A stretch of 24,632 bases of DNA from a virus (IMGVR_UViG_3300048762_000128:1-24632); one strand, 5' to 3'. Positions 4,417-20,953 are shown, counted from the stretch's first letter. The notes: generated by a model from the sequence alone, not told the origin. A program made the numbers and translations.

Positions 4417-6186
4417 TTAGAACAGAGCAGCCTGTCCGTATGGGCCGGCTCCCTTGATGTAGCCGAGGAGCTGGGGAGTCTTGACGGCAAGGACCTCTTC
4501 CGAATACACGCCGAAGGGAAGTTTGCGGCTGGTCTGTGCGAACTCGATCCCATAGGTATCGCGCCGCACGAAAACGCCGCGGGTTTCGCCGAGCCGGCTG
4601 TTGTCATACGCGATGCCCAGGTTGTCGACATCGAACAGGATCGTGCCCTTGGGCAAGTAAGGATGCTGCACGATGTCGATGAAGCTGCCGCCCGCAAGCG
4701 AGAAAATGTTGTGATACTGGGCGATGTGTTGATTGACGCTGATTCCGCTGCCATCCGTCTTTGGGCCGCCGCCGGCAAAGAAGAAATTCATCGCGGTCGA
4801 GCCCGTCGCGCCCACCATAAAGGCCGAGCGGAAGCCCGGTACCTGATCGGTGGACAGGTAAATCCGGGTCGGGCTGGTGAGACTGGCCTGTTGGATGGCA
4901 AACAGGACGTTGTCAATCTCCGTGACGGAGCCCACCAGGCCGCCATTGGTGAGCCCGGCGCCGTGCAGATCCACGCCGCCGGGGAGAGCGGTCTGGGTGC
5001 TGTTGGCGGGATACGTCCAGGTTGGCAGCCCGATGGTGTAGGCGGAGTTCGATGCAATCGTGAGAAGCCCATCCTGGTCCAGAGGGTTGGTGGACAGATC
5101 CGAGGCAAAGCCGGCATAGCCTCCCTGGCCCGCATACGCCGCGGTCTGGGTGCCCTGAGTTTGGCCGAAGTAGTTGAAGCTGGAGATTCCGGCCGTGATC
5201 CCGGACAGCTTGGCGCTGGCGGCGGAGGGCGAAAAAGTGGCGGCGGTGTTGATCTGCACAAACCAGGCATATCCCCACGCACCGGCCTGGGGAACACAAG
5301 AGAACTGGATGGTTTTGGTCCCGGAGACCGTGGGGCCGACAACATTTGAAGCGGCCGAGACGATGGCCGTTCCGCCATTGATCACGTCGCTCGATGAGTC
5401 GGAATTCGTCCGGAGAAACTGAGTCGTGATCCCGGCCGCTACCGTATTGGTCGGATTGGTGATCGCGCGATAGTTCAGCGCCACGGCATAGGCGGCCGCA
5501 TAGCTGCCCACCGGCAGGACGCCGGTCACGTAGCTGCTATTGTTCAGTGCGGAAAGGACGCCCACCGGGGTGTTGGTGGTACTGAGCTGGAGTGCGCCAT
5601 TGGAGGCGCTGGTGCCGGAGCCGCCCACGTAGGTCCGCTCTTGCATCCGGACGAACCGAAGCAGCTCCATCATCTTGCCATCCCCCAGCACATCCTCGTA
5701 GCCTTCGCCGGCGGACATCGCCTCATAGGTGACAAAGTCGTTGGTGCCCATTGTCACGTAAGGGCTCGAAAAGTTCAGGCTGGTGAAAGAGCTATTGGCG
5801 TTCGTGTTGCCTTCGGACACGAACGGGGGAGTGCTCGTCGCGTCGAGCGAGGAGATCGCGCGCCATTGAGGCTGCACACCGTAACCGTCGTTGACCCTGT
5901 CCCACCGCGGCGTGGTGTTACGGATCGGCGTGTAAATCGGGTCCAGCATGTAAGCCGGCGCGCGCAGATCGATGAAAACCAGATCCAGGCCGGTCGTGAT
6001 GCCAACCGTGGTGCTGGACTTGGCCAGGCACCGAGGGTCGCTCAGTTTGAACTTCCGGAGATTGTCCTGAACGTACTGGCGAAATTTCTTCACGCCATGT
6101 TCGCGGACCAGCTCCTCCACGCGCCCCATGTCAGTCTTTGAAGCCAGTTGCGCGAAATTTGCCTGTGAAATGCCGGATTGGCGCAT
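4417..6186 (-). CDS. Major capsid protein (589 aa)
   Basis: Strong SD (AAGAGGAG) before ATG 6186. Motifs DLRAPAYMLDPIYTPIRNTTPR, VSEG, IVQHPYLPKGTILF and FGVYSEEVL. It follows the protease/scaffold gene. Confidence 0.85.
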   Translation of the reverse strand: MRQSGISQANFAQLASKTDMGRVEELVREHGVKKFRQYVQDNLRKFKLSDPRCLAKSSTTVGITTGLDLVFIDLRAPAYMLDPIYTPIRNTTPRWDRVNDGYGVQPQWRAISSLDATSTPPFVSEGNTNANSSFTSLNFSSPYVTMGTNDFVTYEAMSAGEGYEDVLGDGKMMELLRFVRMQERTYVGGSGTSASNGALQLSTTNTPVGVLSALNNSSYVTGVLPVGSYAAAYAVALNYRAITNPTNTVAAGITTQFLRTNSDSSSDVINGGTAIVSAASNVVGPTVSGTKTIQFSCVPQAGAWGYAWFVQINTAATFSPSAASAKLSGITAGISSFNYFGQTQGTQTAAYAGQGGYAGFASDLSTNPLDQDGLLTIASNSAYTIGLPTWTYPANSTQTALPGGVDLHGAGLTNGGLVGSVTEIDNVLFAIQQASLTSPTRIYLSTDQVPGFRSAFMVGATGSTAMNFFFAGGGPKTDGSGISVNQHIAQYHNIFSLAGGSFIDIVQHPYLPKGTILFDVDNLGIAYDNSRLGETRGVFVRRDTYGIEFAQTSRKLPFGVYSEEVLAVKTPQLLGYIKGAGPYGQAALF

Positions 6187-6289
6187 GGAAATGCTCCTCT
6201 TACCGGCGGTTTGGGTTATGGGTGGACGGGGCAGCAACCCCGCGAATCTTGGAAACGGGCGGCCCTTAATCCCGGACCGCCCGGATCAC

Positions 6290-14163: not shown

Positions 14164-16410
14164 TCAGTTCTGGCCGGGCCTGGGCAGCCGGCACTTGAAG
14201 CAAACCTGCTTGTCGCCTATAGTAATCCAAACTTTCGACCCGCAGGAACAAATATCTCGATTCGATCCGTCAAAGAGGATCCGATTCTCAGGCAGCGCCG
14301 GCACATGCCCCGCCTTGGCGGCGCCCTCGGCCTCACCCTTGGCCCAGCCGGCCCATCCGCTCGTTCCTTCACATAGCTCCGTCACGGCCCACACCAGAGC
14401 GTCCATTCTATCGGGCGAGTCCTTATCCGTTGCCGGCGCCCAATTCGTCTGCTGATCCTCAAGTTTGGCCAGCATCCCGACATGATGGACGCGCCCCTGC
14501 TCATACATGGCGCTCACGGGCTCGGCACGGATCGCCTTGCCTCGACTTGCATGGACAGCCTTATAGGACACGTTGCTGTCCTGGGTGCGGAGATTGGCCT
14601 CCACCAGGTCCCCGCCATTGTTCACCTCACCAACGATGCGATCCGCCTGCCAGCGGTGGTAAGCCGTGATCGCCACCTTCGCCCACTCATCCGGGGTATA
14701 GATTCCGCTCAGATCCTCAAGCACGTACACATGCACCGGCTCGCGCCCATCGATCGCGGCCACGATGATGCCCGTCTCGTCGCTGTCCTCTTTGGCGCTC
14801 ACGGCCGGATCGATCGCCACGACAATCCGGATCAACGGCGGCGCCGTCCGGACGCGCGCGGCCTCTATCAGTGCCAAGTGGAAAAGCGCGCCGGGGTTGT
14901 CATCCAGCACCTCAGCCAGGAGCTCCTGGCGGCCCAGCCGCGTTCCCTCATATGCCGTGATGATTTTCGAATAGAAGCCCGGCGCCAGGTTGGGCCGGTT
15001 CTCGTACGTCGTGCCGCGGGTGACGATCACGGTCGGATTCTCACTCTTTGAATCCGCTATCAGCGCCTTGATCAGCTTGATCGGCCGCGGCGTCGTCGTC
15101 ACGACCGCCTGGGGACTGTTCCCGAGCCGAAGCCCAAACATGGCCTGGTCCCATGCCTCCTGGGCATATTTCCAAGAGGCAGGCTCATCACAATTGTGAA
15201 CAATTATGCCGTTGGCGATGAATTCGTGATCCCGTTCAACCGCTAGGTTGTAAACCGCCTGATTTCCAACGGGCTCCCAGGTTGACGCAACGCTGACTGC
15301 AAAACCCACCCTTGCGAGACTGGAAGGGCGCCGCGCAATAAAGACATATTCTGGCGACCTTCCTTTTCTCATCCGCGATCCTGCGGTGACAAACCACGCA
15401 TTTAGGCGCCCTCGTCCGAGCTTTGAGGATAAGCGCCTTCCCACACTTGCAACAGTTCGCCGGGTACCGACGCTCGCTGAGACCATGCTTCTTTCGGGTC
15501 GGAGCGTGAAGCGCTTGATGCTGCTGGTGTGTAAGGCATTCGAGGTTGCAGATGTCGTTATTTGACCTATTCCGGTCCCTGTGGTGAATCTTGCATTTCG
15601 GCGAAATAATCCCGTGCGCCCGCTCCCAAACCCAGCGGTGCTGATAAACCGCCCGTCTCTTTCCGTTGGGCCTTTTCTCGCCAATGTAGGCGAGAATGTA
15701 GCCGTCGCGACGTTTTGCCCAATGAATAGCCCGCCGAGTCTCGTCCATCCACAAGATGTTAACACCGGATGCTCGCTTGTCCCGATCAATTCTGAGCCAT
15801 TGGAAAAAGTAACTTTCCCGACCTCCGCGACACGCTCCAACACCGAGGCCACCGCGCTGCTTCCTTGTCGAGTCAACACTATATCTGCGGGACGCAAGGA
15901 TTCTATAGAGACTGGTCCCGACGGCGTGGCCACCATCGTCCCGGCAATAAAGCACCAGAGCTTCTGGTGCTGTTTGCCGCGGAGCCGGTCCGGCTCTTCG
16001 GCCGAGAATAGTAGCGTCCGGGATCCATCCGGCCAGGTGAGCCGGCGCTTTGATACCTGATATTTTGGCCGCTCGCCCCGCGGGCAGATGGCCAAGATTC
16101 CACTCTCGCCCTCCACCATCACGTCGCGGAGATCATCCGACGTCGGCGCAACAAAATTGACGCGGGAGTATCCCTGCCGTTTCCAGATCCGCACCGTCTC
16201 CGCGCCGGTGCGCGTCTTGCCGTATCCGCGGCCGGCCAGGATCAGCCAAACGGCCCACTCGCCCAGGGGCAGCGTCTGGTTCGGCCGCGCCCAGGAGGGC
16301 CAATCGTAAAAAAGCGCCTCAAGGTCTTGATCCGGAACTGATTCCAAAAGAGCCCGCAGGTCATTGGATGGTTTCCGCTGGAGCCTCAACCTGTCGAATA
16401 ATTCTCTCAA
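14164..16410 (-). CDS. terL: Terminase large subunit, intein-containing (ORF is open to ATG 16449; TTG 16410 is a plausible start)
   Basis: WARPNQ, Walker A AGRGYGKTR, EEPDRLRG, Walker B W/CDE restored after splicing, TTTPRP coupling motif, and nuclease motifs VAIDPA, DETGIIV, EVNNGGD and SPDRMDALVWA. Confidence 0.95.
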   Translation of the reverse strand: MRELFDRLRLQRKPSNDLRALLESVPDQDLEALFYDWPSWARPNQTLPLGEWAVWLILAGRGYGKTRTGAETVRIWKRQGYSRVNFVAPTSDDLRDVMVEGESGILAICPRGERPKYQVSKRRLTWPDGSRTLLFSAEEPDRLRGKQHQKLWCFIAGTMVATPSGPVSIESLRPADIVLTRQGSSAVASVLERVAEVGKVTFSNGSELIGTSEHPVLTSCGWTRLGGLFIGQNVATATFSPTLARKGPTERDGRFISTAGFGSGRTGLFRRNARFTTGTGIGQITTSATSNALHTSSIKRFTLRPERSMVSASVGTRRTVASVGRRLSSKLGRGRLNAWFVTAGSRMRKGRSPEYVFIARRPSSLARVGFAVSVASTWEPVGNQAVYNLAVERDHEFIANGIIVHNCDEPASWKYAQEAWDQAMFGLRLGNSPQAVVTTTPRPIKLIKALIADSKSENPTVIVTRGTTYENRPNLAPGFYSKIITAYEGTRLGRQELLAEVLDDNPGALFHLALIEAARVRTAPPLIRIVVAIDPAVSAKEDSDETGIIVAAIDGREPVHVYVLEDLSGIYTPDEWAKVAITAYHRWQADRIVGEVNNGGDLVEANLRTQDSNVSYKAVHASRGKAIRAEPVSAMYEQGRVHHVGMLAKLEDQQTNWAPATDKDSPDRMDALVWAVTELCEGTSGWAGWAKGEAEGAAKAGHVPALPENRILFDGSNRDICSCGSKVWITIGDKQVCFKCRLPRPGQN
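15193..15954 (-). mobile_element. Class 1 intein (254 aa) in the TerL Walker B motif
   Basis: Block A CFIAGTMVATPSG, block B GTSEHPV, block F VYNLAVERDHEFIANG and block G IIVHN with +1 Cys. Removing it restores KLW-CDEPASW. Confidence 0.95.
15236..15748 (-). CDS. HNH homing endonuclease with C-terminal Zn fingers, in the -1 frame inside the intein (frame open from 15955)
   Basis: DGY...VYQHRWVWERAHG...IHHRDRNRSNNDICNLECLTHQQH, then CCKCG, CVVC and CLYC...FCSQRC. Confidence 0.85.
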   Translation of the reverse strand: MDETRRAIHWAKRRDGYILAYIGEKRPNGKRRAVYQHRWVWERAHGIISPKCKIHHRDRNRSNNDICNLECLTHQQHQALHAPTRKKHGLSERRYPANCCKCGKALILKARTRAPKCVVCHRRIADEKRKVARICLYCAAPFQSRKGGFCSQRCVNLGARWKSGGLQPSG

Positions 16411-16813
16411 TGATGTCCCCCCGATCGACGGGCTGGAATAACGGGCCATCGTCGGCGCCGGTGGCCTCGAACCGATCCTTTTGGCCGCAAAGGTTTTTCC
16501 CCATCCAGATCAGGGCGGTAACGTTGCCGGCCATCCCCATCTCAAATTGCTTTCGACGCACGGAGGCGGAGCACTTGAGCTTCCCCAGCTCGTACTCCTC
16601 ACTGTAATTGCGCTGGAGGGTATCGACGCTGCAGCCGAGGAGCGCCGCGCATTCCCGCTGCGTGAGGCTCATGGATGCCATGGCAATCAGCTTTTTCTTA
16701 TCGATCCGCTTCGGAGGGCGGTCCGCCTGGATCGGGCCGGCCCGGCGCATCCGAAGTTTGCTCTTGGCCGTGACGGACATCTCGACAGGCCTGGAAAGAT
16801 CGTATTTAGACAC
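16361..16813 (-). CDS. terS: Terminase small subunit
   Basis: HTH TQRECAALLGCSVDTLQR and SVRRKQFEMGMAGNVTALIWMGKNLCGQKD. Immediately upstream of TerL. Confidence 0.85.
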   Translation of the reverse strand: MSKYDLSRPVEMSVTAKSKLRMRRAGPIQADRPPKRIDKKKLIAMASMSLTQRECAALLGCSVDTLQRNYSEEYELGKLKCSASVRRKQFEMGMAGNVTALIWMGKNLCGQKDRFEATGADDGPLFQPVDRGDIIERIIRQVEAPAETIQ

Positions 16814-18008
16814 TCAAAACCGCTTTCTTGCCGGTGGCCAGTTCCCAGCGAATTCGGATCACGTCGACGTAGGCCGGCGAAAGCTCCATCATGAAGCAAC
16901 GGCGGCGCGTTTTCTCGCAGGCGATCAGGGTTGAACCGGAGCCGCCGAAGAGGTCTTGGATAATCTGTTTGGGCATCGAAGCGTATTCCAGCGCCTGCTC
17001 TATAAGGGCCACGGGCTTCGCCGTAGGATGGTCTGAGCTTACTTCCCTATCGACGCGCCACACGTCTCCAGCAACCGTCTTCTGGCCCCCGAATGGCCCA
17101 TAGTACGCAATGAACTCATGTTGTTTGTAGAATTTATCGAGGTTTTGGATGCGAACCTTCTTATCCCAAACGATACAGGATTTTGGCGGTTTCTCGGCCT
17201 CAATCATTGCCCGCTCATAGGTTGACCAGCTCTTCCAGTTGCAGCAGATAAATAACGGGCAAGTGTTTAATAACACAAGTCTTATCAGGTCAGGTATTGC
17301 GCCAAGCTCAGCATCGTTCGCTATTTTCGCGTGTTTCCCTTTCGTGTGCTGATAGCCGATACCATAAGGCGGGTCAGTAAACACCATGTCCGCCTTCTGG
17401 CCGCCCATCAGCCGCTCCACGTCCGCCAGCACGGTTGAATCTCCGCACAGCAGCCGGTGATCGCCGAGGATGTACAGGTCGCCAAGCTTAGCCACAGCCT
17501 CGACCGGAACGGCCGGAACCTCATCCTCGTCCGTTTGGAGTTCAGCATTCTGCGGCCAAAGATCCTCTAGCTCATCTGCATTCCAGAAGGGAGCCAGATC
17601 GAAGCCCTCCGCGGTAAACGCCTTCAAAACGTCCACATCCCAACTGAGCGATACCTCGTTGGCCCTGTTGTCTGTGATCGCCAGCGACCTGGTCTTCGCG
17701 TCCTTCAGGTCCAGATCTATGCGCTGAACCGCGACAAGCTGGCGTCCGTCGGTCTTGATCACCAGCACATCGTCCAGGCCTGCGGCCGCAGCGTTCTGAG
17801 CGGTCTTATTGCCGGCAATGATGGCGCCGTGCTTGTCCAAGAGGATCGAGCGGCCGGCGCCATAGTCCCGGAGGCTCTTCTCGATCATGGCGTTTCCGCG
17901 CGCGGTCCCCTTGTTGGCATTCTTCGCATCCTGGGTGAGATCACTCAACTTTTTGCGCGCGACCGCATTGCCCGGCGGCAAGTTCTTAGGTTTATGTGCC
18001 TTCGCCAT
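16806..18008 (-). CDS. ParB-like N-terminal domain + N6A/N4C DNA methyltransferase (beta class)
   Basis: N-terminal NAN..SLRDYGAGRSIL..IIAGN, then HRLLCGDS, FTDPPYG, HPTAKPV and DLFGGSGST. Confidence 0.92.
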   Translation of the reverse strand: MAKAHKPKNLPPGNAVARKKLSDLTQDAKNANKGTARGNAMIEKSLRDYGAGRSILLDKHGAIIAGNKTAQNAAAAGLDDVLVIKTDGRQLVAVQRIDLDLKDAKTRSLAITDNRANEVSLSWDVDVLKAFTAEGFDLAPFWNADELEDLWPQNAELQTDEDEVPAVPVEAVAKLGDLYILGDHRLLCGDSTVLADVERLMGGQKADMVFTDPPYGIGYQHTKGKHAKIANDAELGAIPDLIRLVLLNTCPLFICCNWKSWSTYERAMIEAEKPPKSCIVWDKKVRIQNLDKFYKQHEFIAYYGPFGGQKTVAGDVWRVDREVSSDHPTAKPVALIEQALEYASMPKQIIQDLFGGSGSTLIACEKTRRRCFMMELSPAYVDVIRIRWELATGKKAVLSV

Positions 18009-19770: not shown

Positions 19771-19885
19771 CGCTTCCCGCCGGCGGTAATCCGGAGCGGG
19801 AAAACCTGGGGCTCGGACTTGCGCGCGCGCATCCGGCCCCAGGTAAAAACGTTATTACATTTTAACGTTCTAACGAGAGGATTGC

Positions 19886-20127
19886 ATGGGAACGAGAACC
19901 GAAATCGAATGGACAGATGCGACAGGAATCCGCTCCGCGGCTGTTCGCGCGTAAGCGAAGGTTGCCGGAACTGCTATGCCGAGCGCGATGCGCTCCGCTG
20001 GTCTGGGCCTGGGCAGCCATTTGAGGGCCTGGCTGTGCTTCGGGATGGCCGCGTCGGCAAGAAAGCCGCGGGCGCGCTGCTCGACGGCCGGGAATACAAA
20101 CAGTTTCCGGAGGAGGAAAACTCATGA
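19886..20127 (+). pseudogene. Gp37Gp68/DUF5131 family remnant (frameshift plus internal deletion)
   Basis: MGTRTEIEWTDAT, then a 1-nt loss, then NPLRGCSRVSEGCRNCYAE...; joined directly to the C-terminal RVGKKAAGALLDGREYKQFP. Confidence 0.8.
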
Positions 20128-20537
20128 TCCCAGATGGAACGAAAATAAAGGCGATCGCCTTATTCAGGGAAAAGAGGAGCACCCACCACATTGCAGAGGC
20201 TCTTGGGATTTCCTGGCCAACCGTCGACAAGCTACGGAAGGAATGGCTTAGCCAACCTCCCGCCGAAGAACGGCTTAACAAACCCCCAGCATCTGAGGAC
20301 TCCGCGCCGGATCCTCAAGCCCCGGAGCCCGATGCCAACCCGGAGGATCCCTGGGATATCAGCCTCAAGGTTCTGCCGGCGGACCTGAATAGAATCCTCC
20401 TGGCGGCGAGTGAGTCCGAACGGGCCACCGCGGTCGCGGTGATCCTACAAGCGCGCCTGGATGCCATCCTGAACCCACCAGCCAATGAGACTGAGGAGAA
20501 ACCCGAATGCGACCAAGAAAGCGAATCCTCTGCATAA
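20124..20537 (+). CDS. HTH-domain protein
   Basis: STHHIAEALGISWPTVDKLR, with ATGA coupling. Confidence 0.65.
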   Translation: MIPDGTKIKAIALFREKRSTHHIAEALGISWPTVDKLRKEWLSQPPAEERLNKPPASEDSAPDPQAPEPDANPEDPWDISLKVLPADLNRILLAASESERATAVAVILQARLDAILNPPANETEEKPECDQESESSA

Positions 20538-20953
20538 ACGACGATGAGCAAGAGCTTTCCGTGCTCCGGATCGTACTGGAAACGAACGGCTATCGCGTCA
20601 TTCCCGCCGCATCCGGTGAACAGGCAATTGGCCTTTTCCCCGAAAACCAAATTGATCTGGTGCTCGCCGATTATGCGATGCCGCAGATGGATGGGGACCA
20701 ACTGATTGAGCGCCTGAAACAGATGGCCCCGCATATTCCCATGATCCTCCTGGGTGTCGACCTCTGGCCCACCCACGCCGATGCCCTGCTGCTCAAAAGA
20801 GCCTGCCCAGCATCTGAGCTGCTCGATCGCATCAAAGTCATGTCCGCGCGCAGGCGCGGACCACGACAGGGATGGAAACTTGAAGCCGGGGTCCGGATTG
20901 CGCCGGCGGCCGCTCCGGGATATATTCATGGAAGTCCATCCACGCTTGCGTGA
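20507..20953 (+). CDS. Stand-alone response regulator receiver (CheY-like)
   Basis: ILCINDDEQ, DLVLADYAMPQMDG, IPMILLG, ADALLLK and a C-terminal KVMSARRRGPR. Confidence 0.9.
   Translation: MRPRKRILCINDDEQELSVLRIVLETNGYRVIPAASGEQAIGLFPENQIDLVLADYAMPQMDGDQLIERLKQMAPHIPMILLGVDLWPTHADALLLKRACPASELLDRIKVMSARRRGPRQGWKLEAGVRIAPAAAPGYIHGSPSTLA

Follow-up and report, generated by a model that had tools for sequence, protein, structure and literature searches.

A phage terminase intein with an HNH endonuclease gene in its -1 frame and a predicted start signal within a splicing block

Homing endonucleases (HEs) encoded out of frame within inteins or other genes have been described for several systems. 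Brucellaphages, i.e., Tb and others, harbor an out-of-frame HNH gene inside the intein of the large terminase subunit TerL (PMC4422536, 2015; GenBank JN939331, ORF07/ORF08), and Gosselin, Arsenault, and Gogarten (bioRxiv 10.1101/2025.01.02.630785) reported actinobacteriophage inteins with an endonuclease VII (EndoVII)-like HE in frame 3, terming such captures extremely rare, placing second open reading frames (ORFs) typically outside the splicing domain and proposing a free-standing HE that invaded an intein as their origin. Further examples are a dnaX intein of cyanobacteria whose +2 ORF encodes a LAGLIDADG HE (Phillips et al., bioRxiv 10.64898/2026.09.14.751524), the out-of-frame HNH gene in a DNA methylase of phage ShiLan, for which leaderless initiation was proposed (Arsenault et al., PMC11855218), and fractured genes, in which a free-standing endonuclease is located between the halves of a split intein (Dassa et al. 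2009, PMC2677866). In this study, we analysed a phage fragment of 24,632 nucleotides (nt) (IMGVR_UViG_3300048762_000128:1-24632; this whole stretch is referred to as the window), which carries the terminase genes terS and terL and the portal gene on the minus strand and whose terL is interrupted by an intein with an HNH_3 endonuclease gene in the -1 frame. Since an out-of-frame nuclease within an intein has been in print since 2015, the layout as such is not new; new are the I-HmuI-like nuclease in the -1 frame, the breadth of its family in phage terminases, and a likely promoter in a splicing block. A search of the literature, subscription journals and preprint supplements excluded, revealed no publication describing this HNH_3/-1 family or a promoter placed within the splicing block of an intein.

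The TerL frame (minus strand, 16449-14164) is one open frame, i.e., not a split gene of the fractured-gene or split-intein type, and a TTG some 13 codons after the first ATG may be its real start. The nearest intein-free TerL proteins comprise 492–494 amino acids (aa). As stated in the original prediction, which had been made from the sequence of the window, the intein frame possesses complete splicing blocks, namely C1, block B (T59-S-E-H62), block F (VYNLAVE), and the terminal H253-N254 followed by Cys+1 at a KLW/CDE junction (the slash marking the insertion point). C1, T59, H62, and N254 are invariant across 31 aligned intein members, while position 4 of block F, usually Asp, is Asn in the window intein. 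Pfam Hint_2 was detected above its cut-off (33 bits vs. 28.4), and Intein_splicing fell 1.9 bits short (33.9 vs. 35.8). An AlphaFold (AF2) model built from the 31-sequence alignment revealed a predicted local distance difference test score (pLDDT) of 96–98 over residues 1–80 and high confidence also at residues 221–254, and its best match among solved structures in Foldseek was the gp41-1 intein (E 7e-8, template modelling (TM) score of 0.89 over the target). With an N-terminal Cys, TxxH, a terminal His-Asn, a +1 Cys, the Hint fold, and an in-frame insertion at a conserved site for which empty alleles exist, the element shows the features of class 1 inteins, so that motifs and model point to a class-1-type intein predicted to be self-splicing. 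The middle of the intein frame, which had been described as about 130 featureless residues rich in R/S/T/G, indeed consisted of these four residues to 54% (residues 86–215, 130 aa), and a pLDDT below 50 across most of residues 91–214 predicts it to be disordered. Splicing at the RNA level by a group I or group II intron was rejected, since the Rfam scan of the window gave no match and all motifs of an intein are in place. The contigs of three RNA runs, whose coverage is too sparse to count, contained no joint across the insert.

Read in the -1 frame of the same strand (offset +2), the intein DNA encodes a protein with a strong match to Pfam HNH_3 (E 1.5e-14, 53.8 bits vs. a cut-off of 24.8), the sole Pfam family found at E<=0.1, and with matches to 11 PHROG families, 10 of which are named HNH endonuclease. 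Thus, the profile search that had been suggested as a check for this frame confirmed the intact HNH domain, while the three Cys clusters announced together with it proved to be four Cys pairs. The stop codon (TGA, 15238-15236), which is formed by the V-E codons of block F, was also located correctly; the frame, however, had been described as open from 15955, whereas it is open from 16132 (298 codons) and most likely starts to be translated at ATG 15748. This start was preferred since relatives close the -1 frame 23–53 codons into the intein and since the separately called homologues P0001–P0003 begin at the matching Met-Asp; the GTG at 15955 was rejected as a start because of the same stops. 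Therefore, the true overlap of the two frames amounts to 513 nt, in agreement with the more than 500 nt without stops claimed before.

Among 13 aligned members, residues H55, H56, N64, N68, and H77 of the HNH core are invariant and the other core residues nearly so, and all eight Cys residues are invariant, the Cys pairs likely forming two zinc ribbons for DNA binding. The AF2 model of the protein reached a mean pLDDT of 85.6. I-HmuI is an intron-encoded HNH homing endonuclease that nicks DNA, and its structure (PDB 1u3e) was both the best PDB match by profile (E 0.003, aligned to I-HmuI residues 32–105) and the top Foldseek match of the model (E 0.019, probability 0.99, TM 0.35), each of them weak. 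Both proteins possess an N-terminal beta sheet plus the HNH core; the window protein, in contrast, is Cys-rich in its C-terminal part. For the window copy alone, two open frames are only borderline beyond chance (P of no stop 0.05–0.13 by shuffles), and it is the HNH_3 match plus the family that makes dual coding certain. The double constraint is visible at SQRCVNL of the HNH frame, where the third positions of five codons are fixed in 25–28 of 29 members because the same nucleotides spell S-V-x-S-T-W, a Hint strand, in the intein frame. The coordinates of all features are given in Table 1.

Table 1. Location of terminase, intein, and endonuclease features in the window
Feature	Position	Strand	Remarks
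terS	16813-16361	minus	
Terminase large subunit gene (Terminase_6N + Terminase_6C)	14164..16449	minus	761 codons counted from first ATG
Portal gene	11736-9394	minus	
Intein, 254 aa	15193..15954	minus	762-nt insert, QKLW/CDEP, immediately N-terminal to Cys of Walker B segment
N-terminal splicing region	15700..15954	minus	residues 1-85; C1; block B TSEH at 15780-15769
Intein-frame middle	15310..15699	minus	130-aa passenger peptide, predicted disordered, stop-free
C-terminal splicing region	15193..15303	minus	strand FAVSV, block F VYNLAVE, terminal HN
HNH_3 endonuclease gene, -1 frame	15236..15748	minus	170 aa; ATG from intein G-W codons
HNH catalytic core	15508..15640	minus	H37; H55-H56; N64; N68; H77; H81
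Four Cys pairs of HNH protein	15287..15454	minus	CxxC at 99, 117, 135; CxxxC at 150
Doubly constrained stretch	15277..15301	minus	CSQRCVNL in HNH frame, VSVASTW in intein frame; overlaps Hint-model strand 218-222
Predicted extended -10 box TGT-TAACAT	15756..15764	minus	block B codons V-L-T, 7 nt before ATG; putative

A census of frames in the 80 best HNH relatives in IMG/VR revealed a fixed relation to the intein. For 58 of them, a number to which the window element contributes two copies and in which one locus is truncated at its 5' end, the HNH gene is read in the -1 frame relative to a contiguous intein, while not a single one is in frame within such an intein. Three relatives (L016, L055, and L058) are in the +1 frame of an intein; the nesting in L016 (1866-3443) and L055 (1302-2180) indicates that both offsets are viable and that -1 dominates. 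No intein was detected for 13 relatives, two (L019 and L021), joined by a third similar locus (L022, by resemblance only), are nested in DNA methylase genes in the -1 frame, L072 is cut by the contig end, and L040 and L070 are located outside a continuous intein. Further scans yielded 81 distinct -1 elements, or 74 once near-copies were collapsed, all of which start with Cys and end with Asn; a scan of GTDB added three loci only, one of them unrelated. The -1 elements occupy several adjacent sites before Walker B as well as many sites in the apparent TerL nuclease domain, and the HNH stop is mostly found 12–25 codons from the intein end, i.e., in block F or in the residues just before it. Cultured phages with this layout are Tetrasphaera phage TJE1, phiCDHM19, LS06-2018-MD07, and Highwayman, the records of which list only the terminase there.

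An ordinary intein with an in-frame HNH domain, put out of frame by two compensating indel errors, was an alternative already raised with the original prediction, as were homologues with an in-frame HNH only. Frame breaks do occur in such elements, as in Clostridium phage phiCD119 (L107), where the element of phiCDHM19 (L106) is broken and annotated as a split TerL, the breaks being either sequencing errors or decay. The DNA of the window intein, however, is identical in four other contigs (ten locus entries), and contigs of four DNA runs, which may include the source sample of the window, span positions 14200-16500 without a single difference or gap. Compensating indels, which we regard as next to impossible, are refuted by the relation of the two frames throughout the family; the layout is not an assembly error, and the out-of-frame HNH intein is real and common in phages. 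None of the three outcomes named beforehand as refuting the original prediction was obtained, and its interpretation is largely upheld.

Some loci of the family deserve a description of their own. Members of the window subfamily (L006, L009, L083, L121, L153, and L161) are inserted at neighbouring positions five to one residues before the acidic pair of Walker B, and P0072 carries another intein four residues after the insertion site. For the methylase-like genes with an HNH relative in their -1 frame (L019:673-2238 and L021:1931-3388), no intein motifs were detected. In L108 (Lactobacillus phage CL2), L070, and L252 (Exiguobacterium phage vB_EauM-23), TerL is broken around a free-standing HNH gene of the window family; the halves of a split intein are retained in L108 and L070, and L252 revealed no intein motifs but an unannotated C-terminal piece of TerL after the HNH gene.

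In regard to selection, which the original prediction had left to be assigned to one of the two frames, 29 members of the window subfamily (406 pairs) were compared by their nonsynonymous (pN) and synonymous (pS) differences. In the HNH frame, pN was below pS in 406/406 pairs, in comparison with 48/406 in the intein frame and 11/406 in the third frame, while the N-terminal splicing region showed pN<pS in its own frame in all 406 pairs. The four closest pairs (84–98% identical) displayed HNH-frame pN/pS values of 0.005/0.073, 0.025/0.119, 0.056/0.353, and 0.073/0.49, with pN equal to or above pS in the intein frame. Thus, purifying selection acts on the HNH frame and not on the overlapped intein frame. 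Nevertheless, 73 elements contained no stop in 13,886 overlapped codons of the intein frame, where synonymous permutation gave an expectation of 169; this count does not include L107, which has 3 stops, or the unresolved L088 and L089. Of 20 HNH genes chosen as a control, three were removed because they proved nested themselves, L016 in an intein (+1 frame) and L019 and L021 in methylases; the remaining 17 non-nested genes had 155 stops in 3,345 codons. A stop in the intein frame requires the HNH codon NTA followed by A or G, or NTG followed by A, and since synonymous choice can mostly avoid these contexts, the intein frame is cheaply kept open. Judged from sequence and model, the intein-frame middle is a stop-free passenger that is predicted to be disordered.

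Start signals were surveyed in the 74 collapsed -1 elements, with expectations derived from 1000 synonymous redraws. ATG or GTG was present in the expected start window of 68 elements. The motif TAnnnT ended 5–7 nt before the start in 24 elements (7.7 expected, maximum of 15 in 1000 redraws), its spacer peaking at 6 and 7 nt, and a Shine-Dalgarno (SD) motif preceded the start in 28 (15.0 expected), while both occurred together in one element only. A division into starts with a -10 box and starts with an SD motif corresponds to leaderless and leadered initiation, respectively. The box in block B was found in 19 of the 25 collapsed subfamily members (2.8 expected), and its Leu codon is TTA or CTA in 9/9 cases compared to a host share of 22%; in the window, where this codon is TTA, it is a rare one that makes up 5 of the module's 275 codons for Leu. 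In L006, Gln replaces Gly, yet the A before TGG and thereby the ATG are retained. These patterns suggest a leaderless HNH transcript of its own from the -10-like box, and a separate expression of the HNH gene is supported indirectly by a start codon that is conserved together with one or the other signal, a -10 box or an SD motif. One contig of 214 nt at 15498-15711 from RNA run X18 was not used, as it comes without strand, start, or level and possibly reflects DNA in the library.

Alternatively, the nuclease could be a fusion of TerL-N, intein-N, and HNH generated by programmed -1 ribosomal frameshifting instead of being translated from its own start. The -1 frame of the window would allow for this, being open far upstream of the ATG, and so would the missing SD motif at 15748. 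We judge it quite improbable, however, since no XXXYYYZ heptamer exists between the upstream stop and the HNH gene (the sole one, at 16313, precedes that stop), since most relatives show a -1-frame stop a few codons before the conserved ATG, and since a start codon is kept at the expected place in nearly all elements.

To describe the distribution of the element, 201 TerL relatives were surveyed, of which 11 lacked the anchor motif and 190 could be parsed. An insert in the Walker B stretch was present in 11 of these 190, representing 7 distinct elements with three entries being the window's own; the stretch was empty in 178, among them the three nearest TerL relatives (76–79% identical), and one more has an intein four residues downstream. 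P0133, with an intein of the subfamily, and the empty L201 have exteins identical over the first 430 residues, and L185 harbors an unrelated 333-aa -1 element at the same KLW/CDE site. In an extein tree of 120 rows calculated with FastTree, the 29 carriers required no fewer than 12 changes, a number that is only suggestive because carriers and empties came from different searches. Exteins that are identical between filled and empty alleles are suggestive of homing. Signs of decay were found as well: L131 (894-1295) apparently lost its HNH core through an in-frame deletion and is now a mini-intein of 134 aa in which both ends of the overprint are retained. L120 resembles it, and in the second intein of L084 the HNH frame is interrupted by 4 stops. 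The SV(A/V)STW strand is kept in the mini-inteins L131, L120, P0019, and P0021, the first two of which also retain the start and the end of the HNH gene in the -1 frame.

A different function, namely that of a packaging cofactor of the terminase like gp74 of HK97, kept for the benefit of the phage, would be in line with the HNH gene always travelling with TerL in the subfamily and has been speculated for the brucellaphage HNH protein in the available part of PMC4422536. We consider this very improbable, given that 178 of the 190 close TerL relatives do without an insert in the Walker B stretch, that exteins are identical with and without the element, that some carriers show decay, and that the same HNH_3/I-HmuI-like protein also occurs in DNA methylase genes and in other inteins. 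Unlikely, albeit less so, is that the family is a homing unit while the window nuclease is no longer made or active, its open -1 frame being recently inherited and the intein fixed in the population. All five contigs with the element are identical, the four runs contained no intein-free form, and relatives (L120, L131, and the second intein of L084) have decayed; moreover, current selection on the window copy is not measurable because the closest intein relative with DNA is just 57% identical over the overlap. Against an inactive copy, nothing has been lost from the set of invariant catalytic and Cys residues, and the ATG as well as the -10-like box, including the rare TTA codon in it, are likewise intact.

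Altogether, we consider it probable that the element is a terminase intein with a separate I-HmuI-like HNH gene in the -1 frame, likely with its own leaderless transcript and likely homing into empty terL genes. The late terL mRNA would be translated into a 761-aa precursor, in which the Hint halves would fold around the disordered loop of 130 aa and splice out, restoring the Walker B strand. Host polymerase of the sigma70 type would initiate at the extended -10 box in block B, giving a transcript that begins at the ATG, and the resulting 170-aa protein would nick or cut an intein-free terL near Walker B during co-infection or prophage overlap, after which repair would copy the element. In this way, the nuclease could be made during DNA replication before the late terL operon, which an in-frame nuclease of a late gene could not. 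Once homing no longer pays, the HNH gene would decay via stops or in-frame deletions and leave mini-inteins.

Several points weigh against homing by a separately expressed nuclease. Splicing, transcription from the box, translation, and cleavage are predictions, and the timing advantage of an early nuclease is hypothetical. A consensus promoter scan requiring both -35 and -10 boxes found no site in the intein, including 15761, and there is no SD motif at ATG 15748; neither signal is present in 23 of the 74 elements, and for the window alone the box in block B has P = 0.034. The redraw tests overstate significance because the motif was chosen after inspection and the members are related. Likewise, the pairs in the selection test are not independent and their alignment was made in the HNH frame, while the zero-stop count arises partly by construction because the nested set was partly chosen on contiguity. 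Finally, the fold match to I-HmuI is weak, as given by its E value and TM score above, and the contigs of the four runs contained no empty allele of the exact window terL.

Outside of terL, a gene for an N6/N4 DNA methylase (16806-18008, minus strand) is located directly upstream of terS. The gene in the position of the major capsid gene (4417-6237, minus strand, 606 aa) matched only the unnamed phrog_13692 (E 7e-33), and a Pfam search with it gave no match. A 148-aa gene in the phage replication region (20507-20953, plus strand) has unnamed PHROG matches and presumably resembles a response-regulator receiver domain. The short ORF at 19819-20127 (plus strand), in which phrog_2045 was matched at positions 15–42 of 299 only, looks like an internally deleted gene.

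With a little less than an even chance of being right, we further propose that inteins with an HNH_3 gene in the -1 frame are a major overlooked class of phage inteins, in which the codons of the splicing domain also provide an early homing nuclease with a sigma70-type promoter and a leaderless start, and that many inteins regarded as decayed and some mini-inteins are members or deletion products of this class. If true, a single stretch of DNA would serve as catalytic block, promoter, and start of a second gene, and a parasite of a late packaging gene would make its nuclease early enough to home. The -10-like box, which keeps a constant spacing to the start codon and is embedded in the splicing domain, would offer a testable answer to the question left by the accessible texts of 2025, namely how a hidden out-of-frame nuclease is expressed, with relatives at hand in cultured phages such as TJE1, whose record lists only terL at this place. 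It also suggests that surveys undercount nuclease-bearing inteins in phage terminases, and in-frame deletion may be a route from such elements to mini-inteins.

Compared with known systems, the locus belongs to the broad kind of same-strand out-of-frame HEs in inteins, having a continuous intein frame and selection on the nuclease frame. It shares with fractured genes an endonuclease gene that has its own signals between intein halves and a 3' end overlapping the C-terminal intein part; the window intein frame, in contrast, is continuous, and within its HNH family it is L070 and L108 that resemble the fractured-gene state. The HNH gene of ShiLan is likewise a frame-3 HNH with zinc fingers in a host frame that is kept open, and L019 and L021 are placed in methylases as in ShiLan, which lacks the splicing domain, whereas the window element has a complete Hint domain. 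The dnaX intein also shows a same-strand +2 frame, frame-dependent ratios of nonsynonymous to synonymous change (dN/dS), and coexisting full, mini, and empty alleles; it differs in its LAGLIDADG nuclease, its chromosomal host gene, and its SD-led start, and the word promoter appears nowhere in the accessible text. The inteins of Gosselin et al. resemble that of the window in the use of the same strand and frame 3 (= -1), in a structureless intein-frame middle, and in having been missed by annotation. By description, their type D is set apart by an EndoVII-like nuclease, as opposed to the HNH_3/I-HmuI-like one of the window, whose ORF overlaps Hint strands at both ends and for which 74 distinct elements were collected. 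Brucellaphage Tb likewise has a contiguous class-1-type TerL intein near Walker B and a same-strand nested HNH gene with Cys clusters in another frame; the accessible part of PMC4422536 contains no promoter or selection analysis. Since the HNH gene of Tb is in the +1 frame, carries its Cys clusters N-terminal to the HNH core, and matched the window-family profile over the core only (19.5 bits), it was probably captured independently.

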